Below, one piece after another: positions 2,066 to 19,059 of a stretch of 64,000 nt of DNA. The position numbers and the translations under genes are program-made. This DNA comes from Nitrospinaceae bacterium UBA7883 (lineage in GTDB: Bacteria > Nitrospinota_A > UBA7883): contig DLRR01000021.1 of NCBI GenBank assembly GCA_002500605.1, forward strand, positions 47,866 through 111,865, read 5' to 3'. Position 1 is the stretch's first letter; every line of letters begins with the position of its first letter. The notes beneath the pieces were generated by a model. It was not told where the DNA came from. It worked only from the letters and a program-made list of their open reading frames with translations, and made no database searches.

Positions 2066-2067
2066 GA

Positions 2068-2946
2068 CTAATTGCCCTTCCCTGCACCAATAATTGTTTG
2101 AACTGCCATCTCAAGCTCAGATACCCTCATTCGTTCAGAGAGATCATCAGGCATTATGTCCGACTCAAACCCCATGGCTATATGCTCGTTGGGTTTTAGT
2201 ATTGATGTACGTATGTAATCTTCCAACGAGTAACCGGCCGGCAACTTGCCCTTATACTGCTCAGCCATATTGACTAGGCTTGGCCCCATATCGGGTTCTT
2301 CACCTTCCATGTCTACGTTTGGCACCACATGGCAAACTTTACATTCATATTTTTCAACCAACTGCGAAAAATCTTTTACTGGACCTGGGTCCTCAGTTTC
2401 ATCCTCTTCGTCCACATCTATCTCACCAATGGGCAAAGATACTGTAATGTCAATACCTGCAGCCTGTTGCAAATACGCTATGACTGCATTTATCTCAACT
2501 TCTGACAGATTTATTGATCCGGCTGAAACATCAGGCATAGGGCTTATAGTATCGCCTGATCCTGTTTTGCCAAACCCGACCACAACAAATGCAGAAGGTT
2601 TAATCATGGACTCTCTCAAGTATTCTTCTGCCGACTCTGCGTCACCTTTGTAACGCAAATCTTGCAGACGATCAGTTGATCTTACAGCCACAGGTTGTCC
2701 ATCGTCACTTGTCTCAATAAGAAGTGGTGCCCGGTGTCCAACAGCGTTATGGCAAAGCGGACAAGTCCCCTTACCTTCATATATTTTTTCCCCCAGTGCT
2801 GCATAACCTTCCAACGTCATCCCTTCAAGGGAAATTTCTTCCTCTGAGGGTGGCTGTGATTGCATCTGTGGAATACTGTTGGAAAACCACGTATATCCAT
2901 AAATCACCATTAAACTGAAGGCTAAAATTTGAAGCAATGTTTTCAT
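2068..2946 (-). CDS. Membrane-anchored diheme c-type cytochrome
   Basis: N-terminal hydrophobic helix, CPLCH and CKVCH motifs, SPMP and DIMP Met motifs; ATG overlaps the upstream stop. Confidence 0.85.
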   Translation of the reverse strand: MKTLLQILAFSLMVIYGYTWFSNSIPQMQSQPPSEEEISLEGMTLEGYAALGEKIYEGKGTCPLCHNAVGHRAPLLIETSDDGQPVAVRSTDRLQDLRYKGDAESAEEYLRESMIKPSAFVVVGFGKTGSGDTISPMPDVSAGSINLSEVEINAVIAYLQQAAGIDITVSLPIGEIDVDEEDETEDPGPVKDFSQLVEKYECKVCHVVPNVDMEGEEPDMGPSLVNMAEQYKGKLPAGYSLEDYIRTSILKPNEHIAMGFESDIMPDDLSERMRVSELEMAVQTIIGAGKGN

Positions 2947-4754
2947 TTGTCAGCTATTTTCCTTTTACTAAAGTCATCTAGCCAAAAAATGAACATAACC
3001 ATTGCCATGAATATCAACGTAGTCAAAGAAACTATTTTGGCTGCATAGCCAAGTGTTGGCGTAAATGCATCTGCTGAATAATCGCGAAAAACAGTGTAAA
3101 CATGCCAATGTTGTCTTATGCCAGAGCGAACGTAACCCATTAGACCCATCAGCCAAGTAAATGATATGGCAAGCAGAAACAGGGCGTATTGGGAACGAAT
3201 AGGCATTGCGCCCCATTTAGTCGGACCAATGGCCTTTGAGCCGCGGTAAATAAACGCATTTATCACGCTTGCTACAATAATAACCAGCAAAGTTGTGGAA
3301 ACCTGCGGAACCGAAAGGCCTATTCTGATGTTAGCCGGAATGTAATAGCCGTATACTCCTAGAATTATAATGTTTAAAGCACCTGCCACAAACATGGCGG
3401 TTATTGCCGCATTGCCTACATCCATCCATGTGACTGTTGGGATCTTCCCTGCCCGTTGATACAACATAAAGGCAAGGAAGGTGGTAAGTATCATTAGATT
3501 TACTGCAGTATTTTTTGCCGACATAACACCAAGCACGCCTAGAACTGGGTGATGGGCACCTCCAAGGGCTTTAATTTCTGACCCGGTCATAACAATCGTA
3601 TGCGGGGTAAACCATACAAGAAAACATGCTACCAACACGAAGGCCATATATTTAATAGCCTTTCGATACTTTTCACCCCCCGTTGCTCTACCCAAGCCAA
3701 TCCAAAGATAGTAATTTGCTCCAAGAAATAGGGCGCCGATGAGTAATGCCTGTATTATGAATAGCCACGCAAAAATCCCACCCATAAGCGTAATACCCAT
3801 CTGTTGACTATATGCGTACATCTCTTTGGTTAACCAATACCCTGCAAAAGGCAACGGTAAAAGCCCCACGATGGCAATGAAATTAGCTGTATAGCCCATC
3901 CAGTCATAGTGGGCCCTGTAATCGCTGGTTTTTGCAGTGAGAAACTTGTATGCGGCATATGCCCCCACTATCGAACCACCGTATGCAATGTTTGCTATAA
4001 AACGATGCAGGTTAACAGGATTCCAGAGTGGCCCTTTTATAACATCCCACACGTTCCCCAAAAACAACCCATCCGGGCTTACCCCAGAAGGCGCCATCAT
4101 AAATGTCGCCCAGGAATTTGAAAGAACCATCAACGTCATTCCTGCCACATTGAGCATAAGGCCAACAGTCAGGTGTGTCCATTTGCCTAATCCATCAGAT
4201 AAGGCCTCCCAGCCATAATAGTAAATATATAAACAAAGGCTTTCAGCAAAGAACATCAAAGCATATACAAACATCACTGGTTTAAATATCTTGAGCGAAT
4301 ACATTGTAAAATCGGGGTATAGTATTATGAGTAGAAATAGAAGGATCCCCCCCAGTGTTGCAGTAAACGAAAAGGCAACCATGCTTATCTTTATAAACTC
4401 ACGTGCCATATTATCGTAGCGCTTGTCGCCTGTTAAAACGCCTATTAGTTCTATAACTAGTACGAATATTGGAACACCAAGAACAAAGGCAGCAAAAAAC
4501 AGGTGCAGCTGAGCTACAATCCAGACAGCTACTCGACTTGAAAACCCAAATAACAGTGGATATGAATCTTCTGACAGTTTTGGTGCTGAAGCATAGAGTT
4601 CACTTTGGCTCGTTTCACTGGAAGATTGTGTTGAAGGCTGTACCTCTGTCGAAGCGGAAGTTAGTTCAGAAAAAGAAAGAATAATTACAAATACAAATAG
4701 GGCAAGTGCAGCAACATACGGTAGCCGATTAGCTGTCTCTTTTAGGTGCCTCAT
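2943..4754 (-). CDS. Cytochrome bd-like oxidase subunit I (CydA-like, Nitrospira/Nitrospina type)
   Basis: Polytopic membrane protein with AQLHLFFAAFVLG, NLHRFIAN and MGYVRSGIRQHWHVY motifs. Start moved from 4823 to ATG 4754, which overlaps the stop of the upstream small ORF (ATGA). Confidence 0.8.
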   Translation of the reverse strand: MRHLKETANRLPYVAALALFVFVIILSFSELTSASTEVQPSTQSSSETSQSELYASAPKLSEDSYPLLFGFSSRVAVWIVAQLHLFFAAFVLGVPIFVLVIELIGVLTGDKRYDNMAREFIKISMVAFSFTATLGGILLFLLIILYPDFTMYSLKIFKPVMFVYALMFFAESLCLYIYYYGWEALSDGLGKWTHLTVGLMLNVAGMTLMVLSNSWATFMMAPSGVSPDGLFLGNVWDVIKGPLWNPVNLHRFIANIAYGGSIVGAYAAYKFLTAKTSDYRAHYDWMGYTANFIAIVGLLPLPFAGYWLTKEMYAYSQQMGITLMGGIFAWLFIIQALLIGALFLGANYYLWIGLGRATGGEKYRKAIKYMAFVLVACFLVWFTPHTIVMTGSEIKALGGAHHPVLGVLGVMSAKNTAVNLMILTTFLAFMLYQRAGKIPTVTWMDVGNAAITAMFVAGALNIIILGVYGYYIPANIRIGLSVPQVSTTLLVIIVASVINAFIYRGSKAIGPTKWGAMPIRSQYALFLLAISFTWLMGLMGYVRSGIRQHWHVYTVFRDYSADAFTPTLGYAAKIVSLTTLIFMAMVMFIFWLDDFSKRKIADK

Positions 4755-4864
4755 GGTATCAGCGGTAGCCCTTGGACTTTCATAAGAAAAAAGTTGATAG
4801 AGTACAGCAATGCAGAAAAACATAAGAAAAAGGCAGCAAAGAAGCCTATCAATTTCCCATTCAT
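4751..4864 (-). CDS. Small single-pass membrane protein, 37 aa (MNGKLIGFFAAFFLCFSALLYSINFFLMKVQGLPLIP)
   Basis: Hand translated; G-rich RBS (ggtggggg) upstream; stop overlaps the CydA-like ATG; one hydrophobic helix. Confidence 0.65.
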   Translation of the reverse strand: MNGKLIGFFAAFFLCFSALLYSINFFLMKVQGLPLIP

Positions 4865-5013: not shown

Positions 5014-5072
5014 TTAATATTAACCCTCAATAATTCTTGATGATGTAAAGCAAATACTGTTCCTCAGACTTT

Positions 5073-5569: not shown

Positions 5570-6316
5570 ATGATTTCGCGAACAGCCTTGGTTGCAACTA
5601 TGGTGGCAACTTTGTTCTATTTATCTAGTGCGATTGCATATACAAAACAGGATGTGCCCAATGGTGGAGCCCTGTCTGGTAAAATAAGCTTCAATGGCAA
5701 AGTTCCAGATTCAATGAAAATTTCAATTGAAAAAAATCCTGAGGTTTGCGGCACTGGTGTCCGGGAAATCAAAGAAGTTACTGTTGATGGTAACGGAGGG
5801 CTGGAAAGTGCAGTTGTGTTTTTCAAGAAAGTTTCAGCGGGTAAACCATGGAACGTCCCAAATGGTGGTTGGCAACTTAACCAAAAAACTTGCACTTTTC
5901 TGCCCTGGGTTCAAGTTATTGAGGACAAAAGCGAATTAGAGGTGGTGAACCATGACCCGGTTTTACACAATATTCACACGTACGAACTTATACCTGCTGG
6001 CAAACGGGTCGTCAGAGTAACCATGTTTAATGAAGCACAGCCCACCCAGGGTTTTACTTTTAAGAAAAAGGTTAGGATGCGACGAGGTAACACTATAAAA
6101 GTAGAATGTGATGCTCATAATTTCATGCATGCCTACATGCTAGCTCTAAAGAATCCTTATTATGCCATCACATCCGCTGATGGAACTTATTCCATAGATA
6201 AGATTCCAGCCGGTAAGTACTCGGTTATAGTTTGGCACTCAAAACTTGGCGTGATCTCCAAAAAAATTGAAATTGGAAGTGGCGGTAAAGCTACCTTAAA
6301 CCATGAATACAAATAA
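5570..6316 (+). CDS. Secreted protein with carboxypeptidase-regulatory-like and cupredoxin-like domains; putative type-1 copper protein
   Basis: Signal peptide; HNIH plus CDAHNFM (C-x2-H-x2-M); C-terminal DGTYSIDKIPAGKY beta-sandwich motif. Start moved from 5474 to ATG 5570 (purine-rich RBS). Confidence 0.7.
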   Translation: MISRTALVATMVATLFYLSSAIAYTKQDVPNGGALSGKISFNGKVPDSMKISIEKNPEVCGTGVREIKEVTVDGNGGLESAVVFFKKVSAGKPWNVPNGGWQLNQKTCTFLPWVQVIEDKSELEVVNHDPVLHNIHTYELIPAGKRVVRVTMFNEAQPTQGFTFKKKVRMRRGNTIKVECDAHNFMHAYMLALKNPYYAITSADGTYSIDKIPAGKYSVIVWHSKLGVISKKIEIGSGGKATLNHEYK

Positions 6317-7554: not shown

Positions 7555-7571
7555 TTGGCATAATATTTGCG
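7555..7571 (+). promoter_or_regulatory. Sigma54 (-24/-12) promoter of the peroxidase/molybdoenzyme operon
   Basis: TTGGCATAATATTTGCG matches TGGCA-N6-TTGC with exact GG-N10-GC spacing, about 170 bp upstream of ATG 7740. Confidence 0.75.
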
Positions 7572-7739
7572 AATTGTATTCGCTGAATGAAAGTTATGTT
7601 TGGTTTGTAGGTTAGAAGTTAAACCATTTAAGCCTTGTATAGGGCTCTGTTTCTCCTCTTAAACCTAATTTTAACTTTTGAAATGTGGGGGCTGTTCTAA
7701 AGTCGCTACCCTTATTAAATGGCGCAGGGAGTTCGATTT

Positions 7740-8858
7740 ATGAAATTTTTTACTAACAAAATTTATAATTACTCAACTATTTTGATGGTGCTTGTAGTTG
7801 CAGTTCTATTCACCTCTGTACAGTCACAAGCATCTGACATCGGCCCCTTGCCGAAATTAAAAATTGACGCCGTCAAAGCAAAACTTGGTAAAGCGTTATT
7901 TTTCGACCCACGACTTTCCGGGGATTCGGCAATTAGTTGCGGCACTTGCCATGACCCAAAAGAGGGTTGGACAAAACATGTCGCGGTGGGTGATGCATAT
8001 CCCGGGAGTAAACATTTTAGAAATGCACCAACGATACTTAACACAGCTTACAAAAAAACTCTTGGCATTCCTTGGCATTGGGATGGTCGAATTGGAACTT
8101 CGTTAAATGACATGACTCGCGACCAAATCACAGACACATATGTGATGAATATGGACATGCGGATCATGCAGGAGCGCCTAAAGCAGGTGCCTATGTACGT
8201 GAAGTTATTCAAACAAGCTTATGGAAAAGAGCCATCCAACGGGTTAGTACGAAAGGCAATTCCAGAATTTTTAAAAACTGTTGTCTCAAAAAATGTGCCT
8301 TTTGATAAAGGCACACTTTCACCCGAACAAAAACAAGGCATGGAGCTTTTCAAAGGAAAGGCCGGATGTATAAGTTGCCATAATGGTCCTATGTTCTCAG
8401 ATGGGTTACCACATAACACTGGCGTCCCTGAGAACGCGGATATTTTTAAAAATCCACAGCGTCATGTCACATACCTTACCTTCATGTATGGTCTTGGAGT
8501 CCAGAATAGGCTTAACTGGCGACGTGATGTTGGCTATTTTACTGTTAGCCATAATGAAAATGACCTTGGCAAGTTCATCACGCCAACCCTGAGAGAACTC
8601 AAATATACAGCACCATACATGCACAATGGCATGATAGGGACCTTAGAAGATGTAATTGAGTTCTACAACAAGGGTGGTGGAAAAGACCGACCAGGGCTAA
8701 AGGACTCAGCGATGAAGCCTTTAAAACTTACGAAGTCGGAAAAAAAGGCATTAAAAACGTTCTTACTTTCCTTGTCTGGTGATAACCCATCGATTGATGT
8801 TGGCAAGCCAGACCTTTCTTATCCTGTAATCGCTAACTGGTATAAAACCAAGAATTAA
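7740..8858 (+). CDS. Diheme cytochrome c peroxidase/MauG-family protein (IdrP-like, first copy)
   Basis: Signal peptide, LFFDPRLSGD..SCGTCH, RNAPT, CISCHNGP, TAPYMHNG. Start moved to ATG 7740 (agggag RBS). Confidence 0.9.
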   Translation: MKFFTNKIYNYSTILMVLVVAVLFTSVQSQASDIGPLPKLKIDAVKAKLGKALFFDPRLSGDSAISCGTCHDPKEGWTKHVAVGDAYPGSKHFRNAPTILNTAYKKTLGIPWHWDGRIGTSLNDMTRDQITDTYVMNMDMRIMQERLKQVPMYVKLFKQAYGKEPSNGLVRKAIPEFLKTVVSKNVPFDKGTLSPEQKQGMELFKGKAGCISCHNGPMFSDGLPHNTGVPENADIFKNPQRHVTYLTFMYGLGVQNRLNWRRDVGYFTVSHNENDLGKFITPTLRELKYTAPYMHNGMIGTLEDVIEFYNKGGGKDRPGLKDSAMKPLKLTKSEKKALKTFLLSLSGDNPSIDVGKPDLSYPVIANWYKTKN

Positions 8859-8872
8859 GTAAAGGAGGAAAT

Positions 8873-10060
8873 ATGTTCAAGGGTAATTATTGGCTTGCAC
8901 TTGTAATCGCAGCCACTTTTATATCTGTAGCCTCCTTGACTGCAGTTCCAGTTTTCGCAGCTGGTGATCCAGATTTTGATCCGCCGTTAGTGCCACTTCC
9001 AGCTCACCCTCCCATTCCAGCGGATAATAAGTCATCTACCGCTATTTACCCAGCCAAGATGGGACCAAAGCAGGAGTTGGGCTATTTGCTATTTTTCGAT
9101 CCCAAACTAACTGGGGATGCTTCTTTATCATGCGGTACATGTCACCATCCGGACACTGGCTGGGGTTTTAATGACCCGATAAGCAGGGGATATCCTGGTA
9201 CGGTACATTGGAGAAATTCCCAAACAATAGTAAATACTGGTTATTTTCATAAACTGTTTTGGGCTGGTTCAGTTACGAGCCTAGAGTCCCAAGCTCCGGC
9301 TGCAAATAAAGGAGGGGTCGCTGGTAACGGGGAAGATGACATGATGGAATCAAGACTCCAAATGACACCAGAGTACCGTCAACGGTGGAAGGAAGTTTTC
9401 GGTTACGATCGGCCTTTGATTAAGGATGCATGGCGGGCTATAGCCGCTTTTGAGCGTTACATGTCCCAGACTGACACTCCTTATGACAGCTTCCTTAAGG
9501 GTGACAACAAAGCTCTCACGGCTTCGCAAAAACGTGGCCTCGAGTTGTTTAAAGGAAAAGCGAACTGTGTTGAGTGCCATAACGGTCCTATGCTAACCGA
9601 TGAAAAGTACTACAACTTAGATGTTCCTAATCCGGTGGAATGGACCGAATCAGGTCTTGCTCAGATTAGTTATCGCTTTGAAATTTACGCAAAAGGTGTG
9701 ACTGAAAAGCTTTATCGCGAATCCAAGCATGACCTTGGAGCATATTTCCGTGGTAAAAACCCACAGGACATAGGCAAGTTTCGCACAGCAACCCTTCGTT
9801 ATCTGAGTTATTCAACTCCATTTATGCATAACGGGGCTTTCTTCACCCTAGAGGAAGTTGTAGATTTCTACAACGAAGGCGGAGGGGAAAGTGATCTGCT
9901 GAACACAAAAACTAAAATTCTGAAACCATTGAACCTCACAGATGATGAGAAAGCAGATCTTGTGGAGTTTCTTGGTTCTATGAGTGGAGAAGAGATTAAG
10001 CTTCCATTTCCAAAGATTCCACCTATAGCAGCATTTGATGACTGGCAACCAAAAAAATAA
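8873..10060 (+). CDS. Diheme cytochrome c peroxidase/MauG-family protein (IdrP-like, second copy)
   Basis: aaggagga RBS, signal peptide, LFFDPKLTGD..SCGTCH, CVECHNGP, GKFRT, TPFMHNG. Confidence 0.9.
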   Translation: MFKGNYWLALVIAATFISVASLTAVPVFAAGDPDFDPPLVPLPAHPPIPADNKSSTAIYPAKMGPKQELGYLLFFDPKLTGDASLSCGTCHHPDTGWGFNDPISRGYPGTVHWRNSQTIVNTGYFHKLFWAGSVTSLESQAPAANKGGVAGNGEDDMMESRLQMTPEYRQRWKEVFGYDRPLIKDAWRAIAAFERYMSQTDTPYDSFLKGDNKALTASQKRGLELFKGKANCVECHNGPMLTDEKYYNLDVPNPVEWTESGLAQISYRFEIYAKGVTEKLYRESKHDLGAYFRGKNPQDIGKFRTATLRYLSYSTPFMHNGAFFTLEEVVDFYNEGGGESDLLNTKTKILKPLNLTDDEKADLVEFLGSMSGEEIKLPFPKIPPIAAFDDWQPKK

Positions 10061-10062
10061 CT

Positions 10063-10089
10063 AAAGCGCATGGCTTATCCATGCGCTTT
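10063..10089 (+). other. Intergenic stem-loop
   Basis: Perfect 11-bp stem aaagcgcatgg/ccatgcgcttt with 5-nt loop and no long T tail, between the peroxidase and Rieske genes. Confidence 0.7.
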
Positions 10090-10120
10090 GTAAAGATAAT
10101 CTAAATGTTTGAGGTGACAT

Positions 10121-10642
10121 ATGAGTGAAACAGAGATGGGAAAAGGCGCTTGTGCAAATAGGCGCGAATTCCTCCTAAGCGGCGGTATTACTGCTGCAAT
10201 GATGATGCTTGGGACAAAACCTATGATGGCTGAGGCCAAGGTGGTCGGATACCCAAGAAAGAAAATTGGCAAGCTAAGCAGGCTCAAGTCTGGAAGGCCA
10301 ATTGATTTCAACTACCCTGATGAAGATTCTGAAAATATATTAATAAAGCTTAGCAAACCAGCTGGTGGTGGTGTTGGTAAAAATGCCAATGTTGTTGCAT
10401 TCAACAAGCTCTGCACGCATATGGGTGGAACTGTTACGGACGGTGGATACCACCATTCAGATGCTGTTGCAGGCCCTTGCCCTTTTCACCTTTCAACGTT
10501 CGATCTTTCGCGCCATGGAATGATTGTGGCTGGACACGCTACGCAGAGCCTGCCACAAATTCAGTTGGAGGTGAAGGGAGATGATATTTATGCCGTCGGC
10601 GTAATGGGGCTTATTTACGGCCGAAACAAAAACCTTGGCTAA
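10121..10642 (+). CDS. idrB: Rieske [2Fe-2S] small subunit of AioB/IdrB type with TAT signal
   Basis: NRREFL twin-arginine signal, CTHMG and CPFH Rieske boxes, GHATQSLPQI..LEV..DDIYAVGVMGLIYGR AioB-like C-terminus. The symbol rests on gene context. Confidence 0.85.
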   Translation: MSETEMGKGACANRREFLLSGGITAAMMMLGTKPMMAEAKVVGYPRKKIGKLSRLKSGRPIDFNYPDEDSENILIKLSKPAGGGVGKNANVVAFNKLCTHMGGTVTDGGYHHSDAVAGPCPFHLSTFDLSRHGMIVAGHATQSLPQIQLEVKGDDIYAVGVMGLIYGRNKNLG

Positions 10643-10665
10643 TAATACATAAGGAAAGATTGATC

Positions 10666-13410
10666 ATGAGCATTACAAAATTTAGTACCAAAGATACAGT
10701 GCCAATACCGCCATCAGACGCCGACGTTCTTACAACCGCATGTGACTATTGTGTAGTAGCATGCGGATACAAAATATACAGATGGCCTGTTGGCAAAGAG
10801 GGTGGAACCAAAGCAAAACAAAATGCCTTAGGTGTTGACTACCCAGTTTCACCTTTGTCGGGTAAATGGATAGGTCCAAACCAGCATAACGTTGCTTTGT
10901 ATAACGGTAAACTTCACAACGTTGTTGTCCTCCCTGATGGCGATGCAGAAGCTGTCAACCTTTCCGGTGATCATTCCATCCGAGGTGGCGCTATATCACA
11001 ACGTTGTTACAACCCTAATTCCCCAACACACGACCGGCTCAAAAGTCCGTTAGTCCGGGTAAACGACACTTTAATGCCTGTCGACTGGGACACTGCACTG
11101 GATGTATGTGCTGAACTGTCAAATTACACTATAAATAAATTCGGTGAGCAAGCATGGGCTCAAAAAACTTTTTCATACGAGTTTTATGAGAACACATATG
11201 CCCTAACCAAGTTTGCCAGACGCTATATTAATACACCTGCCTGGGCACCACACGATCAGCCTGGCCCAGGGAGCGCTACTGCTGGGTTCCGAGATACTGG
11301 TTTTGAAAACTTTGCTCCATCCTATTGGGACTGGGGTAACTCAGAAGTTGTGTTTATATCTGGTACTGACCCATATGAAACTAAGACTGTTCTTTTCACC
11401 GAATGGTTTTTACCAGCTGTACGCAACAGAGGACAAAAGCTAATTTTTGTCCTTCCAAGAAAAACTACTGGTGCTGCTTTCGCCGAAAAGAACGGTGGCT
11501 TATTCTTGCAGATCACACCAGGCACCGATACAGTTTTGCAATTGGCCATAAGTCGGTACATAATTGAAAAAGGGTGGCAAGATAAAGAGTGGATAAATAA
11601 ATGGGTAGCCAATAAGTGGGAAACTGACAGCGGGTTTGGTCAAGGTACTAGGAATACACCATGGCAATGGCGTACCACTTGGGGCAAGTTTCAAACCAAG
11701 GGATTTGATGACTACAAGAAGTGGCTATTCTCTCAAAAAGAGGCGGAAATGGCTACAGCCTCAAAGATTACTGGCATTCCTGCTTCCAAGATAAAAGCTG
11801 CCGCTACCATGATGGCCAAACCCAAGGCAGATGGCAGCCGAGTCAAAACTTCCATCGGGATCGAAAAAGGTAACTACTGGTCTAATAATTATCTCAACAC
11901 CACATCTGTAGCTGCTATGGCAGTTATTCTCGGAGCTGGCGGCCGGCCCGGGCAGGTTGTTGGTCGTTTTGGAGGTCATCAGCGTGGTGGAATGAGCGGT
12001 GGAGGATACCCGAGATCTAAGTCGCCCGAGAAACAAGAAGGTAGACGCAAAAAGCCAATTGATCTTGATCGTTGGTTTGTTTCTGGGCACGTGCGTTTTG
12101 CTCATGTTGTTGGTACCACATGGACATCAGCCATGGGTGGAACACAATCAATTCAAAGTATGTTTAACAAGCTTACTAGGAAAAACCCACACCAGATTAA
12201 ATCCCGCAAGAAAGAAGAAATTATTGACTCCCTTAAAAAGCGCATGGATAGCGGTGGGACTGTTGTTGTTAACCAGGATATTTATCTGCGTGACCCCATT
12301 GGAGCAAAATACGCAGATATAGTCCTTCCGGCTTCTGGCTGGGGAGAAGATGATTTTGCCAGAAACAATGGTGAAAGGCGTTTGAGGCTATACTCAAAGT
12401 TCATGGATGCCCCAGGATTAGCCAAACCCGACTGGTGGATTGTGGGTCAATGGGCTACTAAAATGGGTTTTAAAGGCTTTAACTGGAAAAACTCAAATGA
12501 AGTATTTGAGGAGGCGGCCCGATTCAGCAGAAAGGGTATACGTGCGTATCACAACCTTGTGTTCATGGCAAAGAAAAATGGAATAAAGGGCCACGAAGCG
12601 CTACGCAAGTTTGGTACCAAGGGAATTCAAACGCCAATCTTAATGGTGCCTAAAGAGTGGAAAGAGAACCGTCCTGGGCAGCAGTATGTTAGTGCCGAAA
12701 CTGGGCTTACGTGGAATGGCTATAAATTAGCTGGGACAGTTAGGGCTCATGATACAGAAAGGGTAATGCCAGAGACCGGTCCTGCTGTGACCACAGTGTG
12801 GCCTAAATGGCTTACGCATTTCAACTCACAGTCAGGCAAACTAAACATGCTGAAATCACCATGGAATCTTTTTTCCGATTTTTACGATGAAATCTCTCCT
12901 AAAGGTGATGAATTATGGATCACCAACGGTAGAATTAATGAAGTATGGCAATCGGGATTTGACGACATGGAAAGAAGACCAATGATCATGAAAAGGTGGC
13001 CCGAGAATTGGATTGAAATTCATCCTGACGATGCAAAATCGAGAGGCATTGAAAGTGGTGACTATGTGATGGCTTACAGCAACAGGGTGCCTGTTCAGAA
13101 AGATTACAACCAAGCATCCCATCCAGGCGATTTTCAATACTCTACATTGAAAAAGAATGGGCATATTAGGTTTGACTCTGCCTCTATCACTGGTGTAGCC
13201 ATTGTCACTTCAGTCGTCAAGAAGGGAACGAGTTGGACATATTTCTTACATCCGGAACAGTCTGCCAACAGCCTCGTAGCTATGGTTCCGGACCCAATTA
13301 CCAACCGCTACAGATTCAAGCTTGGAGTAGGCAAGATTAAAAAACTTGGAGAATCTCCTTATAAGAACAGCTTTGATTCGATGAGTTTTGCCAGGCGTGA
13401 TATAGTTTAG
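10666..13410 (+). CDS. idrA: DMSO-reductase-family molybdoenzyme large subunit, arsenite-oxidase-like (AioA/IdrA), most likely iodate reductase type
   Basis: CDYCVVAC (C-x2-C-x3-C, [3Fe-4S] type), HSIRGG, EKGNYW, RFGGHQ, NGRINEVWQS, IEIHPDDA; no own signal peptide; flanked by Rieske and two peroxidase genes. Start at ATG 10666 (TTG 10660 possible). Family confident, substrate inferred. Confidence 0.85.
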   Translation: MSITKFSTKDTVPIPPSDADVLTTACDYCVVACGYKIYRWPVGKEGGTKAKQNALGVDYPVSPLSGKWIGPNQHNVALYNGKLHNVVVLPDGDAEAVNLSGDHSIRGGAISQRCYNPNSPTHDRLKSPLVRVNDTLMPVDWDTALDVCAELSNYTINKFGEQAWAQKTFSYEFYENTYALTKFARRYINTPAWAPHDQPGPGSATAGFRDTGFENFAPSYWDWGNSEVVFISGTDPYETKTVLFTEWFLPAVRNRGQKLIFVLPRKTTGAAFAEKNGGLFLQITPGTDTVLQLAISRYIIEKGWQDKEWINKWVANKWETDSGFGQGTRNTPWQWRTTWGKFQTKGFDDYKKWLFSQKEAEMATASKITGIPASKIKAAATMMAKPKADGSRVKTSIGIEKGNYWSNNYLNTTSVAAMAVILGAGGRPGQVVGRFGGHQRGGMSGGGYPRSKSPEKQEGRRKKPIDLDRWFVSGHVRFAHVVGTTWTSAMGGTQSIQSMFNKLTRKNPHQIKSRKKEEIIDSLKKRMDSGGTVVVNQDIYLRDPIGAKYADIVLPASGWGEDDFARNNGERRLRLYSKFMDAPGLAKPDWWIVGQWATKMGFKGFNWKNSNEVFEEAARFSRKGIRAYHNLVFMAKKNGIKGHEALRKFGTKGIQTPILMVPKEWKENRPGQQYVSAETGLTWNGYKLAGTVRAHDTERVMPETGPAVTTVWPKWLTHFNSQSGKLNMLKSPWNLFSDFYDEISPKGDELWITNGRINEVWQSGFDDMERRPMIMKRWPENWIEIHPDDAKSRGIESGDYVMAYSNRVPVQKDYNQASHPGDFQYSTLKKNGHIRFDSASITGVAIVTSVVKKGTSWTYFLHPEQSANSLVAMVPDPITNRYRFKLGVGKIKKLGESPYKNSFDSMSFARRDIV

Positions 13411-13457
13411 CCCTTATTACTATAGCTTGAAAGCCGGCAGAATCCTTTATTTGGATT

Positions 13458-15536
13458 TTGTCGGCTAATCTAGCTATCTACTGTTTTAATCTGGCATTAA
13501 ATCAAATGCTAACCTTTGATGGAGCAACAGTGTCTCTAAGAAAAGATATCGCCATTCTAGTAAACAATTTTTTGTCATCAAAAAATTTTTACACACGATT
13601 TTATGCCACTAAAACACTTGGGAGTCTTGCCCCTCATATCAATCAGAATTCTTTGATTAACATTGCAACTGACAACAAAGAGGATATAGATTTGCGGATT
13701 GAGGCACTAGAAGGAATTTACCAGTGTGGCAAAGATGCCGATACTTCGGGAATAGAAAAACTGCTATTCGACCCTGAAGGCGATATACGGGTAAGTGCTG
13801 CTAAAACCATTGGGGCTACTGGAAAGGATCAGTCTGTCGATATATTACTTAAAGCTTTAGCCGATGATGGGGATGGTTACAGCTATGACGAAGAGTTTGA
13901 CTGGGACCCACAATGGGACGTGCAACTAGAGCTCATAAAAGCTCTGGGAAACCTTGGTATGGCAAAATCAGCAGAACCCATCATAAGGTTTTATGAACAA
14001 GAAGGAGGGGTCGATATTGGTGAAACAGTTTTTACGGCACTTCAATCTATAGGCGGCTCAGCTGTGGTAGATTTTTTTTCTAGAATGCTTTCTAACGGCA
14101 TCCCAGCAGAGCGTCGGATGACATGTGAGATGATTGGCGAAACTGGTTTTCACGAGATGAAAGATTCTTTGTCTTCTGTTTTACTTGATGCAGACCCACT
14201 GGTAAGGGCAGCAGCAGCAAAGGCTCTAGCCCTGGTTGGGGGTGAAGATGGAAAAGTAAGTCTTGCCTTGTTACTTCGCGATTCCAACGACATGGTTGTT
14301 TGTTCGGTTTTGGAAGCGATGGAAGAAAATGGACTACTCTCAGGGATTGAAGAATCAATTAAACCACTACTCGATCACGATTCATTAACTGTTAAAACAG
14401 TTGCTTTAAAGGTGCTAGGTGGATTGCCCAATGTAGATGTTTCCGATAAAGTTACCGGGTACTTAGGGCCAGATGCAAGTGATGAACTAATCCTAGTCGC
14501 TAGTGAAGTAATGGCTAAGTCATCGTCAAAAGAATTTAAGCCACTTCTGCTTGACCTAATTAAAAATCAAGACAAAGAACCGCTTTTACGTCTTGGGTTA
14601 ATAGAACTATATGAAAAATTTTATAAAAACCATGTTGCAAAAGACTTAACTGAGCTGCTTCAAACTGGACCAAGACAAGTATCCATAGCCATTGCCGCCG
14701 CCATAGCAAAATGCGGTGATAATGAATCTTTAGATTCTTTATGCGAGTTGCTTTGGATGAAAGATTCAGATTTACCAATAAACCAAATCGACAACCGGCT
14801 TGACAAATCCAACAGCACTAATGAACTTGGTAAGGACGTTGAAATGATAGGCGGTAAGAAGGCAGTTCTGAACCCTGGGGCCACTCCTGGTGGGTTACAG
14901 CCAGAAGACCTAATCCTTATCCTCACAGGCTGTATGTCTGAGAATGTGGTAAAAAATATGGTGTTGCTTGCACAGTCTGACAATCCAGAACTAGCGTCAA
15001 AAGCCATTGCTGCACTAGGGGAAATTGGTATCAACCCCGGTGAAGACAAAGTGCGTGCAATTATTGCACAATCAGACCCAAAGATAAGGGCACAGGCAGT
15101 ATATGTTGCTGGGAAACTCAGTATCGTTTTAGATCTTGTAGCCGAAAGACTGATGGTAGATTATGATGAAAATGTCCGCGAAAAATCCGCTAATGCAATA
15201 GCCTTTGCTGGTAAAATTGAAGGAATTACAGCCTTATCGGAAGGCCTAAATGACCCCTCTTTACAAGTGAGGAAAGCGTGTATAAAAGGTCTTGGTTTAA
15301 TCAATAACGACGATGGTTGCCTTAATATTCTTATAAATGCTCTCTTTGATCGTGAACATTTTGCCGACTTAACAGACGATATATGTAATTCGTTATCCAA
15401 ATTTGATCCAGAATCCGTGAAAAGGGCCTTGGTTTCAGTGCTCACTGACCCTTCCAAAGAAGACTTGCATTGGATAGCTTTAGATGCTTTGGGAAAAGTT
15501 TTTGGAACTAGTGTTGATAAAATAATTAACACTTAA
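13458..15536 (+). CDS. HEAT-repeat (PBS lyase-like) protein
   Basis: Repeated VR..AA.ALG / L...L.D patterns over about 690 aa; start uncertain (TTG 13458 or a later ATG). Confidence 0.8.
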   Translation: MSANLAIYCFNLALNQMLTFDGATVSLRKDIAILVNNFLSSKNFYTRFYATKTLGSLAPHINQNSLINIATDNKEDIDLRIEALEGIYQCGKDADTSGIEKLLFDPEGDIRVSAAKTIGATGKDQSVDILLKALADDGDGYSYDEEFDWDPQWDVQLELIKALGNLGMAKSAEPIIRFYEQEGGVDIGETVFTALQSIGGSAVVDFFSRMLSNGIPAERRMTCEMIGETGFHEMKDSLSSVLLDADPLVRAAAAKALALVGGEDGKVSLALLLRDSNDMVVCSVLEAMEENGLLSGIEESIKPLLDHDSLTVKTVALKVLGGLPNVDVSDKVTGYLGPDASDELILVASEVMAKSSSKEFKPLLLDLIKNQDKEPLLRLGLIELYEKFYKNHVAKDLTELLQTGPRQVSIAIAAAIAKCGDNESLDSLCELLWMKDSDLPINQIDNRLDKSNSTNELGKDVEMIGGKKAVLNPGATPGGLQPEDLILILTGCMSENVVKNMVLLAQSDNPELASKAIAALGEIGINPGEDKVRAIIAQSDPKIRAQAVYVAGKLSIVLDLVAERLMVDYDENVREKSANAIAFAGKIEGITALSEGLNDPSLQVRKACIKGLGLINNDDGCLNILINALFDREHFADLTDDICNSLSKFDPESVKRALVSVLTDPSKEDLHWIALDALGKVFGTSVDKIINT

Positions 15537-15715: not shown

Positions 15716-17089
15716 CTAATTAAAGTCCGCATCGGCACATTTCTTAAGTTTTTCTCTTAGTGTTACTCGAGAAATCCCAAGCAGACGGGCAGCCTCCGAT
15801 TTGTTCCCATCAAAGTGATTCACAACACTTTGAATATATTTAGCTTCTACCTCTTCTAGTGAAGTCCAATTGTCGCGTATTGAAAAAAGCTCTGCACTAT
15901 TATTTTTTACGAGATTAAAGCCAGAATCAGGCAAAAGATCTTTGCGAGTTATTATATTTGTTTTAGTTAAGATATAGGCACGCTCAATCATGTTTTTTAG
16001 TTCCCTTATATTCCCAGGCCAAGCATAGTTTTTTAATAGCTCAATAGCATCGTTATCAAAATCGATAACATCTTCTTTCATTGTGCTTTTAAACTGGGAT
16101 AGAAAGTGTCTGGCTAAATGCGGAATGTCATGTACGCGCTCACGCAAAGGGGGCACCAAAATAGTGAAAACATTGAGCCTGTAAAGTAGGTCTGATCGAA
16201 ATTGGTTTTGCTGGATTTTAACACTGAGTTCCTGGTTGGTAGCTGAGATAACTCTAATATCAATTGCTATATCTTTTGTCCCACCAAGCTTGCGAAGCGA
16301 ACGTGATTCTAAGACACGAAGCAACTTGGGCTGAAGTGAAATGGCTAGGTCTCCAATTTCATCTAAAAAAATAGTGCCTGTGTGGGACAACTCGAAAATA
16401 CCAGCTTTACTGGTTTTTGCATCTGTAAAGGCTCCTTTTGCATGCCCAAAGAGCTCCGATTCTAAAAGGGTTTCAGGGATTGATGAGCAGTTTATTTTTA
16501 ATAAAGGCTTGTCTTTACGGGAAGAAATGTTATGTATAGCGTCTGCTACCAACTCTTTACCTGTCCCACTCTCGCCCAAAATCAAGACATGGGTATTGTC
16601 TGTCCTGGCTACTTGACTAATCTGGTCCTGAATACGTTTTATTGGGTCACTGTTTCCAACCATCCCAAAATCTTGGCGCCTAGAGTCTCGCTCGTAACGA
16701 AGGGAAGCAATTTCAGACTTAAGTGTTTCAACTTCAAAAGCTTTATTCACAATTATCCGAAGTTCATCAAGCTCAAATGGTTTGTTGATATAGTCATAAG
16801 CCCCTTGCTTCATTGCCGTTACTGCAGTCTTAATCTCTGGATACGCAGTCATAAAAATACAAAGAACCTGGTCGTCGATCTCCTTCACCCTAGCTAACAC
16901 ATCAAGTCCCGACATGTCGGGGAGGTTAAGGTCAAGGAGCATAACCTTAACAGGTTTATTATTAATTACTTCTATTCCGGCAGCACCGTTACCTGCTTCA
17001 AACACTGTAAAGCCAGCTTTTCTAAAAACGTGGCTCAAAGTTTCGAGCATTGTTTGGTCATCTTCTACGATAAGAAGTTCTTTACTCAT
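15716..17089 (-). CDS. Sigma54-dependent response regulator (NtrC/AtoC family)
   Basis: Receiver (LIVEDD, LLDLNLP), GESGTGKE Walker A, GAFTDA loop, FLDEIG, WPGNIRELKN, C-terminal Fis HTH. Start 17089 overlaps the kinase stop (TGATG). Confidence 0.95.
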   Translation of the reverse strand: MSKELLIVEDDQTMLETLSHVFRKAGFTVFEAGNGAAGIEVINNKPVKVMLLDLNLPDMSGLDVLARVKEIDDQVLCIFMTAYPEIKTAVTAMKQGAYDYINKPFELDELRIIVNKAFEVETLKSEIASLRYERDSRRQDFGMVGNSDPIKRIQDQISQVARTDNTHVLILGESGTGKELVADAIHNISSRKDKPLLKINCSSIPETLLESELFGHAKGAFTDAKTSKAGIFELSHTGTIFLDEIGDLAISLQPKLLRVLESRSLRKLGGTKDIAIDIRVISATNQELSVKIQQNQFRSDLLYRLNVFTILVPPLRERVHDIPHLARHFLSQFKSTMKEDVIDFDNDAIELLKNYAWPGNIRELKNMIERAYILTKTNIITRKDLLPDSGFNLVKNNSAELFSIRDNWTSLEEVEAKYIQSVVNHFDGNKSEAARLLGISRVTLREKLKKCADADFN

Positions 17090-19059
17090 CAAGACTCTTT
17101 TGAATAAGTTTTTGGAAGTAATATCATCAATGTAGTTCCCCATCCTTCTTTTGAATAAACTTGTATTGTGCCCATGTGCTGGTCGACGATTCTATGGACA
17201 ACAGATAACCCAAGGCCTGTACCATCGGGTTTGGTTGAATAAAATGGATCGAAAATCTTTTCCACGCTACCACCGGGTATCCCATGCCCAGTATCACATA
17301 CAGAAATCTCTATAAATTCCCTGTCGTCTGACGAGACCGATTCTTTATTAGTAGTAGTAAAACATGTGTCCCTCAGTTCACAGCAAAAATGCTCATCACC
17401 TGTACGTACAGAGATGTTAATGGCTCCACCATTAGCCGTTGCTTGAATCGAATTTAAAATCAGGTTGACTATTACCTGCTTTATTTGCTGGGGATCAACC
17501 ATGACATTATTCAGATTGTCCTCAAAAACCTCGTTGAGTTCAATTTTCTTTTCTTTTGCTTGAATTTTTAGAAAAAACACAACATCGCGCACAAGTTCAC
17601 AAATATCACATGGAGCTAGATCAATATCCCTAATAACCGCAAAGTTATTGAATTTTTTAAGAAAACTATTAAGCCTGTCTACTTCAGAAACAATCTTTGC
17701 AAAATGACTAGATTTATCTGTGTGATATTCTGTCTCCTCAGAAAGCGCCTGCGCCACTGTTTTGATAGATGCCAAGGGGTTGCCAATCTCATGTGCAAGA
17801 CCCATTGAAAGCTCACCTAGTGAAGCTAGTTTATCCTGTTTATAAAGTTCCCTTTCTAGCTGTCTAATCTCTGCAACTGAGTTTCGCAGTTCTTCCTCCT
17901 TAGTGGCATTGGCACTCAATAATGAAGCCTGATGACTTTTAAGCTGGAGTTTCATTCTGTTATAGCGACTAACAAGGTCTTCAAGCTCATCTCCAGTTCT
18001 GACGTCTAGAGTACTGTCCATTTGTCCCTCCGCAACCAAAAGCACATCTTCAGACAATGCCTCGATCGGCCTAGTAAAGCGTCTTCCAAAGAAAACCGCT
18101 GCAAGTACAGCGAAAACTGCGGCTCCAAACAGGGCTATCATTAAGTTAAGTGTAAAAACATTCAGTTTGGGATCAAAGTGTGATTTCGGTAGTACCGTAA
18201 CCAGTCGCCAAGGTGGAAGGTTAAAGTTGCCGTCATCTTGAATAAAGAAGTTCGCTAAAACAACATCATCTAAATTAACAATTGTGTTGCCTTCCATCAG
18301 ATTTTGCTTATTAAGGGAAGGATAAAGTTCTTTAAAGCTTACCCCAGAGTTAACATTCACGGGGACTTTCAGCTCATTATTGTTCTTTTCAGTATGTATA
18401 ATCACCCCGTTCTCATCTACCAGGAAAGTTGTAAATGGAGTGCCTGGAAGTTGCATCCATTTAAAAAATTGTTTTGCAAACATATTGAGAACCACTATCC
18501 CCTGTTTTCTTTCGTTGTAATAAACAGGTGTTACAATTCGAATTACCATTTGTTTTGGTAATTCAAGTTTGCCGTGCTCCAAATTAAAGTCCATGGCGGA
18601 AAAGTAAACAGAGCCTTTTTTTATGGTTACGCCCTTTTGGAAATAGTATCGATTCCCTTTATATTGGAGGTTGGCTTCTGGGGTTAGGAAAAATAAATTG
18701 TTTCTGAAGTTAGACCTTATAACCTCATGTCCCAAATCACCAAGATACCTAACCTGATAGTACTCTGGCCTGCTTTTGCTAAACTCTAAAACTTCTCGTT
18801 TGGCATTTATTATGTTCGCAGGTGCATATGAAACCATTTCTGATAGATATGTAACGTCTTTTACCACCCTGCGAAGATTGTTTTGTATCTGGATTTTTTG
18901 CAGATTGGCGCTGGCTTGTAAACTTGAAGTGGAGCTAGTTTCAAGTGTGTTTAATGTCATTGCAATTCCAATTACGCTCACCACCACAATTGGAATTAGG
19001 CAAACACCTAGAAACACTAGGATTAGTTTGGCGGTAATACCTATTCTTGGAAGTTCCAT
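17089..19059 (-). CDS. Sensor histidine kinase with large periplasmic (Cache-like) domain and HAMP
   Basis: Two TM helices about 270 aa apart, HAMP (RPI..L...V..G.L...GDELEDL), AHEIGNPL H-box, N, DTGHG and GTGLGL boxes. Confidence 0.93.
   Translation of the reverse strand: MELPRIGITAKLILVFLGVCLIPIVVVSVIGIAMTLNTLETSSTSSLQASANLQKIQIQNNLRRVVKDVTYLSEMVSYAPANIINAKREVLEFSKSRPEYYQVRYLGDLGHEVIRSNFRNNLFFLTPEANLQYKGNRYYFQKGVTIKKGSVYFSAMDFNLEHGKLELPKQMVIRIVTPVYYNERKQGIVVLNMFAKQFFKWMQLPGTPFTTFLVDENGVIIHTEKNNNELKVPVNVNSGVSFKELYPSLNKQNLMEGNTIVNLDDVVLANFFIQDDGNFNLPPWRLVTVLPKSHFDPKLNVFTLNLMIALFGAAVFAVLAAVFFGRRFTRPIEALSEDVLLVAEGQMDSTLDVRTGDELEDLVSRYNRMKLQLKSHQASLLSANATKEEELRNSVAEIRQLERELYKQDKLASLGELSMGLAHEIGNPLASIKTVAQALSEETEYHTDKSSHFAKIVSEVDRLNSFLKKFNNFAVIRDIDLAPCDICELVRDVVFFLKIQAKEKKIELNEVFEDNLNNVMVDPQQIKQVIVNLILNSIQATANGGAINISVRTGDEHFCCELRDTCFTTTNKESVSSDDREFIEISVCDTGHGIPGGSVEKIFDPFYSTKPDGTGLGLSVVHRIVDQHMGTIQVYSKEGWGTTLMILLPKTYSKES

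Follow-up and report, generated by a model that had tools for sequence, protein, structure and literature searches.

Four open reading frames on the + strand, at 7740–13410 of the window (the whole 64-kb stretch of DNA analysed here), encode two di-haem cytochrome c peroxidases, a TAT-signal Rieske subunit and an AioA-like molybdenum subunit, separated by gaps of 14, 60 and 17 nt (Table 1). A preliminary description of this DNA had recognized the co-directional arrangement and interpreted it as a locus of the Idr (iodate reductase) rather than the Aio (arsenite oxidase) type. The arrangement was confirmed by the open reading frames and their domain matches, and the genes are referred to below as idrP2, idrP1, idrB and idrA.

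Table 1. Features of the idr locus and its surroundings (positions within the window).
Feature	Position	Strand	Description
Divergent module	1292..4823	-	bd-like membrane protein (2943-4823), di-haem cytochrome c (2068-2946), mono-haem cytochrome c (1292-2065)
Secreted copper-motif protein	5570..6316	+	Candidate type-1 copper site; C-terminal CarboxypepD_reg-like domain
Candidate sigma-54 (-24/-12) promoter	7555..7571	+	TTGGCATAATATTTGCG; TGGCAC-N5-TTGCW with 2 mismatches
idrP2	7740..8858	+	Periplasmic di-haem cytochrome c peroxidase, first gene of the operon; CCP_MauG E 4.8e-38
idrP1	8873..10060	+	Second di-haem cytochrome c peroxidase; CCP_MauG E 6e-37
idrB	10121..10642	+	TAT-exported Rieske [2Fe-2S] small subunit; TIGR02694 137 bits
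idrA	10660..13410	+	Mo-bisPGD/[3Fe-4S] catalytic subunit; Rieske_3 [3Fe-4S], Molybdopterin and Molydop_binding domains; TIGR02693 419.6 bits
HEAT-repeat protein	13507..15536	+	HEAT_2 E 1e-46; directly 3' of idrA; longest ORF from 13458
Sigma-54-dependent response regulator, NtrC class	15716..17143	-	Response_reg, Sigma54_activat and HTH_8 domains
Sensor histidine kinase	17089..19059	-	HK_sensor_dom_bact, dCache_1, HAMP, HisKA and HATPase_c domains; periplasmic Cache-type sensor domain

The longest reading frame of idrP2 starts at 7719, but the ATG at 7740, which has a GGGAG Shine-Dalgarno sequence 8 nt upstream and gives a protein of 372 residues, as in its relatives, is the likelier start. 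Both peroxidases carry two CxxCH motifs, preceded by a Sec-type N-terminus in IdrP2 and a Sec signal in IdrP1. The two proteins are 39% identical, compared to a published value of 37% for P1 and P2 (PMC8801600), and each is orthologous to its own counterpart in other idr loci: IdrP2 shares 45–60% identity with the first-position peroxidases of related loci but no more than 33–41% with those in second position, and IdrP1 is 50–64% identical to the latter. IdrB has an RREFL twin-arginine motif and a CTH-x19-CPFH Rieske motif, and is 43–61% identical to the proteins in the IdrB position of related loci and 37% identical to AioB of Sinorhizobium M14. IdrA, for which ATG 10666 is a possible alternative start, has no signal peptide of its own and contains an intact [3Fe-4S] motif (CX2CX3C; CDYCVVAC at residues 28–35). 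The cofactor motifs are intact across all four genes.

The set and order of the genes are those of published idr clusters (PMC10989891), and the synteny of two peroxidases, a Rieske subunit and a molybdenum subunit is the published criterion that distinguishes idr from aio loci (PMC8692401). The same study and the reference aio loci agree with the earlier statement that true aio loci generally lack the twin peroxidases. Among 80 related loci, the same order was found wherever enough upstream DNA exists, and it is also kept in the SCT-like group. Since the order recurs across related loci, its presence in the window is not a matter of chance.

The idr genes are transcribed in situ as one four-gene unit. 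A single 5.8-kb contig from metatranscriptome X5, spanning 7611–13417, matched the four genes exactly. In four further RNA runs, coverage was concentrated on idr and on the copper-motif gene upstream of it, and the 3' ends fell at 13412–13419. Contig depth, which is a poor measure of expression, was 34 over 7611–13417 in X5 against 0–11 for the flanks, and about 10-fold lower for the HEAT-repeat gene than for idr. A candidate sigma-54 site with an intact GG-N10-GC core precedes the start of the 5.8-kb contig by 40 nt, in a cluster adjacent to a gene for a sigma-54-dependent regulator, and may represent the operon promoter. Matches of this kind are common by chance, with about one per 1.2 kb of the window, and no sigma-54 site was found at the equivalent position in eight related loci.

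The large subunit was aligned over its full length, with 50% identity, to the validated IdrA P0242, named in UniProt as the enzyme of Pseudomonas sp. SCT. In contrast, identity to AioA was 28% in local tblastn alignments and 31–34% over trimmed tree columns. A neighbour-joining tree of 182 sequences (200 bootstraps, rooted on only three AioA sequences, and with Roseovarius azorensis represented by congeners only) separated the ingroup, including the window sequence, from AioA at 100% bootstrap, which upheld the assignment to the Idr type. Within the ingroup, the SCT group branched off first, followed by a Methylomirabilales/KSB1/Planctomycetota group, and the clade containing the window sequence (90% bootstrap) was the sister of a Roseobacter/gammaproteobacterial group. 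The window IdrA is thus nested inside the IdrA clade, between the SCT and Roseobacter groups.

We derived clade-wide signatures from 96 sequences: an insertion with an invariant WQWRTTWG, and GGHQRGG. Both are absent or different in AioA and present in the window IdrA, which has the insertion at residues 318–343 and GGHQRG at 438–443, where AioA has GGHQEG. Its subclade also has an insertion of its own, about 25 residues long, at 662–688. The active-site tetrad of AioA comprises His195, Glu203, Arg419 and His423 (A. faecalis numbering, 1G8K). Equivalents of the two histidines and the arginine are conserved in the window IdrA, including an RFGGHQRG sequence, while HDQPGPGSA aligns with HNRPAYNSE of AioA, placing Ala206 at the position of Glu203. 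The alignment agrees with the one originally proposed, but the replacement cannot carry the argument for IdrA that had been built on it. Within the IdrA clade this position is occupied by Ala, Ser, Asp or Glu (Asp in SCT, Ser in the Roseobacter group, and Glu in some close relatives), and the change is therefore not diagnostic. On the alignment, the WQWRTTWG insertion and GGHQRG are the better signatures for separating IdrA from AioA.

The characterized systems of Pseudomonas sp. SCT, Denitromonas iodatirespirans IR-12, Azoarcus sp. DN11 and Aromatoleum toluclasticum TC-10 have the same genes in the same order, and share with the window the cofactor motifs, the TAT-Rieske export logic, Sec-exported peroxidases that are ≈37–39% identical to each other, the IdrA-clade insertion, GGHQRG and an adjacent two-component system (PMC10989891, PMC8801600). 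Compared to the SCT-type enzymes, the window IdrA adds the insertion at 662–688 and has Ala instead of Asp at the Glu203 position. The sister group, comprising Roseovarius azorensis and related aerobic marine Rhodobacteraceae, is closer (56–58% identity by tblastn; 59.6% to Roseovarius conchicola over trimmed tree columns) and shares the synteny, the marine habitat and a probably oxygen-respiring host (PMC11445184); however, it belongs to another phylum, and its enzymes lack the 662–688 insertion and have Ser at the Glu203 equivalent. R. azorensis reduces iodate and upregulates idr 59–102-fold (PMC11445184). Two Methylomirabilales sequences, which branch elsewhere in the IdrA tree, are 58–59% identical to the window IdrA. 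Candidatus Methylomirabilis iodofontis (NC10) provides a published, MAG-inferred precedent for idrP2P1BA in an uncultured, non-proteobacterial chemolithotroph, where methane oxidation has been proposed as the partner process of iodate reduction (PMC10989891).

The ATP-synthase proteins AtpD and AtpA assign the host to Nitrospinota, in line with the Nitrospinota/Nitrospirota-like host surmised earlier. Its GC content is about 41%, and at least 19 marine metagenome runs contained near-identical DNA; the host is a widespread marine Nitrospinota bacterium. Complex I and bd-like oxidase proteins are both encoded, a combination typical of an aerobe or microaerophile, and the host probably respires oxygen. 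The preliminary description was correct in placing idr outside the proteobacteria, but not in treating this as new: idr was reported in 2021–22 from Planctomycetaceae, Rokubacteria, Lindowbacteria and NC10 (PMC8692401, PMC10989891), and our locus scans add many more phyla. No prior report of idr in Nitrospinota was found in the literature searched. The locus represents a known enzyme system in a new host lineage, and not a new kind of system.

The genes that flank the operon differ from those of the SCT-type systems, whose hosts are denitrifying proteobacteria. Near the cluster, the annotated ORFs include neither cytochrome c551 nor moaA; the window instead has copper-motif, HEAT-repeat and bd-like/cytochrome c genes. 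The copper-motif gene (longest ORF from 5474) formed its own transcription unit in X5 (5435–6415), with a sigma-54-like motif at 5384–5399 and a terminator at 6403–6432, and its homologues adjoin idr in 41 loci. Residues H165 and C212-x2-H215-x2-M218 are conserved without exception among 36 homologues, and there was a weak profile match to the blue copper domain protein 5fc9 (E 0.23); a single-sequence AlphaFold model was unusable (pLDDT 39). The protein is a possible electron carrier. A HEAT-repeat homologue is found downstream of idrA in 65 loci, including the closest relatives of the window (L220 and L222), and since the protein lacks a signal peptide, a role in assembly or as a chaperone is possible.

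The divergent module, in which the bd-like protein was identified by a partial match to Cyt_bd_oxida_I and the cytochromes were typed by CxxCH counts, has the same layout in L222, at 50–70% identity. The bd-like gene adjoins idr in 27 loci, whose hosts belong to the Latescibacterota, Planctomycetota, Dehalococcoidia and the alpha-, beta- and gammaproteobacteria. We consider the module a candidate quinol-to-cytochrome c route feeding IdrAB. The recurrent copper-motif, HEAT-repeat and bd-like/cytochrome c genes are candidates for the electron-delivery and maturation steps of Idr. We found no description in the literature searched of a cupredoxin-like and bd-like/c-type cytochrome delivery module for Idr. 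Such a candidate module also accompanies idr clusters in many other phyla.

On the other side of idrA, the NtrC-class response regulator, whose partner is the sensor histidine kinase, likely controls the idr cluster; homologues with 44–51% identity occur near idr in ten related loci, and a two-component system has been described among the accessory genes of the iodate reduction island (PMC8801600).

Taken together, the locus is a complete, transcribed operon of the iodate reductase type in a marine Nitrospinota bacterium, and it probably encodes a periplasmic iodate reductase, a function ascribed to it by analogy with the characterized systems. Extrapolating from Pseudomonas sp. SCT and Denitromonas iodatirespirans, the twin-arginine signal of IdrB would carry folded IdrA, with its Mo-bisPGD and [3Fe-4S] cofactors, into the periplasm. 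Soluble carriers would bring electrons from the quinol pool to the Rieske cluster; in place of bc1 and cytochrome c551, this host may use the copper-motif protein and the bd-like/cytochrome c module for the purpose. From there, the electrons would cross the [3Fe-4S] cluster to the molybdenum, where IO3- would be reduced to HIO, which would in turn yield I-, and the twin peroxidases would clear H2O2 or related oxidants arising on the way. The sigma-54 two-component system would probably turn on the operon in response to iodate, low oxygen, or both.

We considered the possibility that the enzyme is a true iodate reductase used for redox balancing or detoxification under oxygen limitation, with no energy conserved. 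This is a variant of the iodate reductase reading, its share being counted within it, and we hold it to be possible, if rather unlikely. The two peroxidases in the operon would suit detoxification of iodate or of reactive iodine or oxygen species, the host, with its complex I and bd-like oxidase proteins, looks like an aerobe or microaerophile, and aerobic marine idr bacteria reduce iodate only at limiting oxygen, with no growth coupling shown (PMC11445184). However, the same gene set supports growth in SCT, IR-12, DN11 and TC-10 (PMC8692401, PMC10149662, PMC8801600), and the membrane/cytochrome module next to the operon points to a connection with the quinol pool.

A more doubtful reading is that the IdrA-like enzymes of this subclade act on another oxyanion or oxidant (such as bromate, chlorate/chlorite-type species, selenate or nitrate), or in the oxidizing direction, with the peroxidases serving a different reactive by-product. 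Identity to the sole validated sequence compared is only 50%, the subclade has its own insertion, the pocket position aligned with Glu203 is variable (Ala here, Asp in validated IdrA), and the experimentally confirmed respirers all fall in a small, distant clade (PMC8801600). Against this, the SCT group and the Roseobacter group, with its iodate-induced idr (PMC11445184), stand on either side of the clade in the tree. The four-gene synteny is strictly kept, down to orthologous P2 and P1, and the clade-wide motifs are invariant. The organism also lives in seawater, where iodate is abundant among the oxidized halogen species.

It is most improbable that the genes encode an arsenite oxidase (AioBA), which would oxidize As(III) and pass the electrons to cytochrome c or a cupredoxin: AioBA (Alcaligenes faecalis 1G8K/8RTL, NT-26 4AAY, Sinorhizobium M14 pSinA) has the same two-subunit architecture of a TAT-signal Rieske protein and a [3Fe-4S], Mo-bisPGD large subunit, both window subunits exceed the model cut-offs (359 bits for TIGR02693, 95.65 for TIGR02694), AioA gave the best solved-structure matches, three of the four tetrad residues are conserved and the adjacent NtrC-type regulator is 36% identical to AioR, but the low identity and the position of IdrA outside AioA, its TIGR02693 score, which equals that of validated IdrA (422.9 bits) and lies 3.5-fold below that of true AioA (1468 bits, Sinorhizobium), the loss of Glu203 and of GGHQEG, the insertion at 318–343 that AioA lacks, and the twin peroxidases, which are missing from aio loci (PMC8692401), all argue against it. 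The genomic context points the same way. Reference aio loci contain aioXSR, a cytochrome c and often ars or pst genes, whereas tblastn with reference-locus queries found no aioX, arsR, arsenic transporter, arsC or arsD in the 64-kb window, in line with the earlier remark on aioX and arsC; the regulator and kinase are present but generic (36% and 25% identity).

Iodate is a major oxidized form of iodine in seawater, and biological activity drives its reduction in waters low in oxygen. Nitrospinota is the phylum that includes the main marine nitrite oxidizers, and the finding of a full idr operon, transcribed in its natural setting, ties iodate reduction to this phylum. IdrA peptides and transcripts have already been seen in Pacific oxygen-deficient zones (PMC9477243, PMC8692401). 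The main interest of the locus lies in the role proposed for iodate in such waters, as the oxidant for "anaerobic" nitrite oxidation, a proposal that was never linked to a gene in a nitrite oxidizer (PMC8114937, PMC11373643). That iodate serves as such an oxidant here, via the cupredoxin-like protein and the bd-like quinol-oxidizing protein with its c-type cytochromes, is a speculative and at present unlikely suggestion. If the host has a nitrite oxidoreductase, a named gene and organism would allow iodate-supported nitrite oxidation to be tested directly; if it has none, the locus simply adds one more lineage to the hosts of a respiratory island that has spread horizontally. Finally, the NCBI equivalog model TIGR02693 labels these proteins "arsenate reductase (azurin) large subunit", and surveys of arsenic cycling based on MAG annotation will therefore over-count arsenite oxidases.

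The plus strand between 7.7 and 13.4 kb carries four open reading frames separated by gaps of 14, 60 and 17 nt, and cofactor and export motifs are intact in all four products. The two peroxidases each have two CxxCH motifs and a Sec-type leader, IdrB has the motifs RREFL and CTH-x19-CPFH, and IdrA carries CDYCVVAC but lacks a signal peptide. The preliminary description of this cluster was borne out in every particular, including its choice of ATG 7740 as the idrP2 start, which is preceded by GGGAG 8 nt upstream and yields a protein of 372 residues, compared to 371 and 367 in the closest relatives. Identity between the two peroxidases is 39%; the published value for idr peroxidases is 37% (PMC8801600).

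Features of the idr region, with window coordinates
Feature	Coordinates	Strand	Remarks
bd-like module: cytochrome bd-like membrane protein, di-haem and mono-haem cytochrome c	1292-4823	-	divergent, beside idr
Candidate sigma-54-type -24/-12 motif	5384-5399		36 nt upstream of the accessory-gene RNA contig start
Secreted copper-motif protein	5474-6316 (likely start 5570)		homologues adjoin idr in 41 loci
Candidate sigma-54-type -24/-12 motif	7555-7571		40 nt upstream of the idr RNA contig start
idrP2, di-haem cytochrome c peroxidase	7719/7740-8858	+	CCP_MauG family
idrP1, di-haem cytochrome c peroxidase	8873-10060	+	CCP_MauG family
idrB, Rieske protein	10121-10642	+	173 residues
idrA, molybdopterin protein	10660-13410	+	916 residues; begins with the 'Rieske_3' [3Fe-4S] domain usual in AioA-group proteins
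HEAT-repeat protein	13458-15536		about 680 residues, no signal peptide, cytoplasmic

The best solved-structure relatives of IdrA are arsenite oxidases (phmmer, E about 1e-77), and its identity to true AioA is 28% by tblastn, or 31–34% over trimmed alignment columns. A search of 5.8 billion proteins returned full-length relatives at 56–79% identity, the closest named one being P0001 (75%) from 'Candidatus Nitrospinota bacterium M3_3B_026'. Many others, about 58% identical and found in Roseibium, Roseovarius, Thalassovita, Methylomirabilales and elsewhere, are all labelled 'arsenate reductase (azurin) large subunit'. Scanning species-representative genomes turned up 80 related loci, and every one with enough upstream DNA has the order peroxidase–peroxidase–Rieske–Mo subunit, idrP2 matching the first peroxidase (45–60%) and idrP1 the second (50–64%). 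The order is the same as in published idr clusters, idrP2, idrP1, idrB, idrA (PMC10989891), and this gene set and order is the published criterion dividing idr from aio loci (PMC8692401).

Scanning species-representative genomes with one betaproteobacterial homologue as query gave 19 relatives, none of them from a named iodate respirer, and a codon-restricted DNA pattern for the motif WQWRTTWG gave at least 120 loci, with no named iodate-respiring strain among the matches listed. A validated reference, the protein named iodate reductase subunit IdrA in UniProt from Pseudomonas sp. SCT (P0242), was obtained by a protein search with a Zoogloeaceae homologue as seed, followed by a cluster look-up. 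Full-length identity of the window IdrA to this protein is 50%. The comparison set does not contain IdrA of Denitromonas, Azoarcus DN11 or Aromatoleum TC-10.

A neighbour-joining tree (182 sequences, 888 columns, 200 bootstraps) was rooted with AioA of Sinorhizobium M14, whose locus is laid out aioXSR–aioBA–cytochrome c, that of Ralstonia, and an ars-linked Cytobacillus enzyme. In this tree, the kind of check that the preliminary description had proposed for its iodate reductase reading, the window IdrA falls with validated SCT IdrA inside an ingroup that is separated from the rooting AioA at 100% support. First to branch is the SCT/Rhodocyclaceae/Zoogloeaceae group (80%), followed by a Methylomirabilales/KSB1/Planctomycetota group, and the window sequence belongs to a 29-member clade (90%) that is sister to a large Roseobacter/gammaproteobacterial group. 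Roseovarius azorensis reduces iodate, with idrABP1P2 induced 59–102-fold (PMC11445184), and since it belongs to a genus of the Roseobacter group, the window enzyme is bracketed by experimentally supported lineages.

The public names come from the NCBI AioA equivalog TIGR02693, whose cut-off of 359 bits admits IdrA-clade proteins: the window IdrA scores 419.6 bits and validated IdrA 422.9, compared to 1468 for genuine AioA. This shows that the 'arsenate reductase' names carry no weight for this locus, and MAG studies that follow TIGR02693/TIGR02694 (NCBIfam) naming count IdrA-clade proteins as arsenite oxidases. In the 64-kb window, aioX, arsR, arsC, arsD and arsenic transporter genes all went undetected, in agreement with the earlier statement about aioX and arsC.

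The only long motifs invariant in 96 full-length clade members are WQWRTTWG and GGHQRGG, and the window IdrA has both. WQWRTTWG is located in an insertion (window residues 318–343) that AioA lacks, while GGHQRGG differs from the GGHQEG of AioA by an acidic-to-basic change beside the conserved His; the basic residue would suit an anionic substrate. A further insertion of about 25 residues (662–688) is particular to the 29-member clade and accounts for the 914–941-residue lengths of its members. The motifs had been read correctly in the preliminary description: RFGGHQRG is present, and HDQPGPGSA aligns with HNRPAYNSE of AioA. Its argument from the Glu-to-Ala change in the arsenite pocket was right about the substitution, but the change is not diagnostic. 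At the position of AioA Glu203, the window IdrA and P0001 have Ala, P0005 (another retrieved homologue) and the Roseobacter group have Ser, validated SCT IdrA and the related loci L142 and L001 have Asp, and L002 and L003 have Glu. The position was therefore dropped as a functional marker.

The four idr genes are transcribed together in the sea. In metatranscriptome X5, one assembled contig of 5807 nt spans 7611–13417; it begins 129 nt before the 7740 start and runs 7 nt beyond the idrA stop. This contig has a depth of 34, whereas flanking genes reach 0–11 and some intervals 0, a pattern that speaks against DNA carry-over. In four further metatranscriptomes from other samples the contigs lie mostly on the idr unit and an upstream accessory-gene unit; contigs from X5, X25, X29 and X30 all end at 13412–13419, and 14 RNA runs hold part of idrA. 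The HEAT-repeat gene downstream is not transcribed at the same level, its RNA being much lower than that of idr. Upstream, the copper-motif gene forms its own transcription unit in five metatranscriptomes. In X5, a separate RNA contig (5435–6415) covers only this gene (5570–6316) and ends within a terminator with a 13-bp stem (6403–6432). The HmuY-like gene at 6638–7360, between the copper-motif gene and idrP2, is almost absent from the RNA contigs; among all fetched loci, this insertion is found only in the window and in the related contig L305. A palindrome with a perfect 11-bp stem lies at 10063–10089 in the 60-nt idrP1–idrB gap, and in X24 and X25 the peroxidase genes have a greater contig depth, a poor measure of expression, than idrBA. 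Partial termination or processing could be involved.

Just downstream, on the opposite strand, are genes for a sigma-54-dependent response regulator and a Cache-domain histidine kinase. Homologous regulators are found near idr in many loci, including the SCT-like locus L142, and the iodate reduction island is known to have a two-component system among its accessories (PMC8801600). The two sigma-54-type motifs upstream of the RNA contigs are plausible candidate promoters. Motifs of such quality often arise by chance, the window having 53 compared to 38 expected. Only 8 of 140 loci have a strict motif ahead of the first peroxidase, and none was seen at the corresponding places in eight related loci checked, so the promoter assignment in the window stays tentative.

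Three neighbours of the operon are conserved far outside this lineage. The copper-motif protein has an invariant His165 and Cys212-x2-His215-x2-Met218, which we take to be the type-1 copper ligand pattern as in amicyanin, followed by a CarboxypepD_reg-like domain. For its N-terminal part, neither Pfam nor PDB yields a significant match; when solved structures were searched by profile, significant matches were confined to the C-terminal domain, and the non-significant ones outside it include a blue-copper domain (E 0.23). A single-sequence structure model of the protein had a pLDDT of 39 and was set aside. The HEAT-repeat gene directly follows idrA here and in 65 related loci, and its product may be an assembly factor. 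The bd-like gene adjoins idr in 27 loci of Latescibacterota, Planctomycetota, Dehalococcoidia and proteobacteria, and the cytochromes c of the module are beside idr in 16–22 loci; the module is upstream in some loci and downstream in others. None of these genes is named among idr accessories in the idr literature examined, which lists cytochrome c551, moaA and a two-component system. Electron delivery and maturation would be a reasonable reading of their roles.

By analogy with SCT and IR-12 (PMC8692401, PMC10989891), IdrAB would be exported by TAT, electrons would pass from the Rieske cluster through the [3Fe-4S] cluster to Mo, iodate would be reduced to HIO by four electrons and then on to iodide, and the peroxidases would remove H2O2 or related oxidants. 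More speculatively, quinol might deliver electrons to IdrB through the bd-like protein and cytochromes c, or through the copper protein.

The host is a marine member of the Nitrospinota, in line with the Nitrospinota/Nitrospirota-like host of the preliminary description; the phylum is indicated by AtpD and AtpA. The window's AtpD is present on 26 contigs, of which the longest measures 435 kb. Every named protein among the best AtpD matches is from Nitrospinota or Nitrospinae (79–86% identity), the M3_3B_026 protein P0286 reaching 86%, and Tectomicrobia appear at 78%; for AtpA, the eight best matches in species-representative genomes are all Nitrospinota (71–73%). DNA nearly identical to the window (77–100% of sampled 31-mers) occurs in 19 DNA or RNA runs from 12 studies, labelled marine or seawater metagenome, indicating a widespread marine population.

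Recent horizontal transfer of the idr cluster was also considered. No tRNA, integrase or repeat boundary was found near it, and its GC content (0.44–0.455) exceeds the average for the window (about 0.41) by only a little. The closest IdrA (P0001, 75%) and a close AtpD (P0286, 86%) come from MAG entries sharing the name Candidatus Nitrospinota bacterium M3_3B_026, which favours inheritance within the lineage, and the bd-like and cytochrome c neighbours are syntenic with those of the relative L222 (counterpart at 232–5232). The cluster thus looks more like one inherited within a Nitrospinota sublineage than one recently transferred.

The earlier placement of the operon outside the proteobacteria holds for this host, but non-proteobacterial idr as such is not new, having been reported in 2021–22 from Planctomycetaceae, Rokubacteria, Lindowbacteria and NC10 (PMC8692401, PMC10989891). 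Our scans add further phyla, among them KSB1, Calditrichota, Latescibacterota, SAR324, Chloroflexota, Actinomycetota, Binatia and Zetaproteobacteria. Full-text literature searches found no paper linking idr with Nitrospinota. The enzyme system itself is already known; the host phylum, the expression in the field and the conserved accessory genes lend the locus some value. Papers were found that consider iodate a candidate oxidant of nitrite in oxygen-deficient zones, none of them with a gene in a nitrite oxidiser, and a link of the operon to nitrite oxidation is speculative.

Elsewhere in the window, 24600–25970 holds about 1.3 kb without an ORF of more than 60 residues and with no Rfam family at gathering score; the only Rfam match in the window is a tRNA-His (27971–28046). 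Much of the remaining window is taken up by housekeeping energy genes (28750–33718 and 38586–53434). They encode a NuoF-like protein, an 846-residue NuoG/formate-dehydrogenase-like molybdopterin protein, complex I subunits B, C, D, H, I, J, L, M and N, and the F1Fo ATP synthase operon.

An exact look-up of the window IdrA in the assembly collection gave no match, and the only record 100% identical to it is a fragment on a 5.8-kb contig (P0008). In L304, an ENA contig from the same population, the idrA reading frame is split: a 255-residue ORF precedes a separate gene (1563–4297) whose protein matches the last 634 residues of the window IdrA at 100% identity. The split may stem from faulty assembly or sequencing, or the allele may be broken; in L305 the second peroxidase is likewise split. 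Contigs from X30 and X24 carry variants at window positions 10740 and 8739: an in-frame loss of 3 nt at 10740, close to the idrA start, and one extra nucleotide after 8739, within idrP2. Substitutions at 7868, 9490 and 10343 are common to several runs, indicating population microdiversity.
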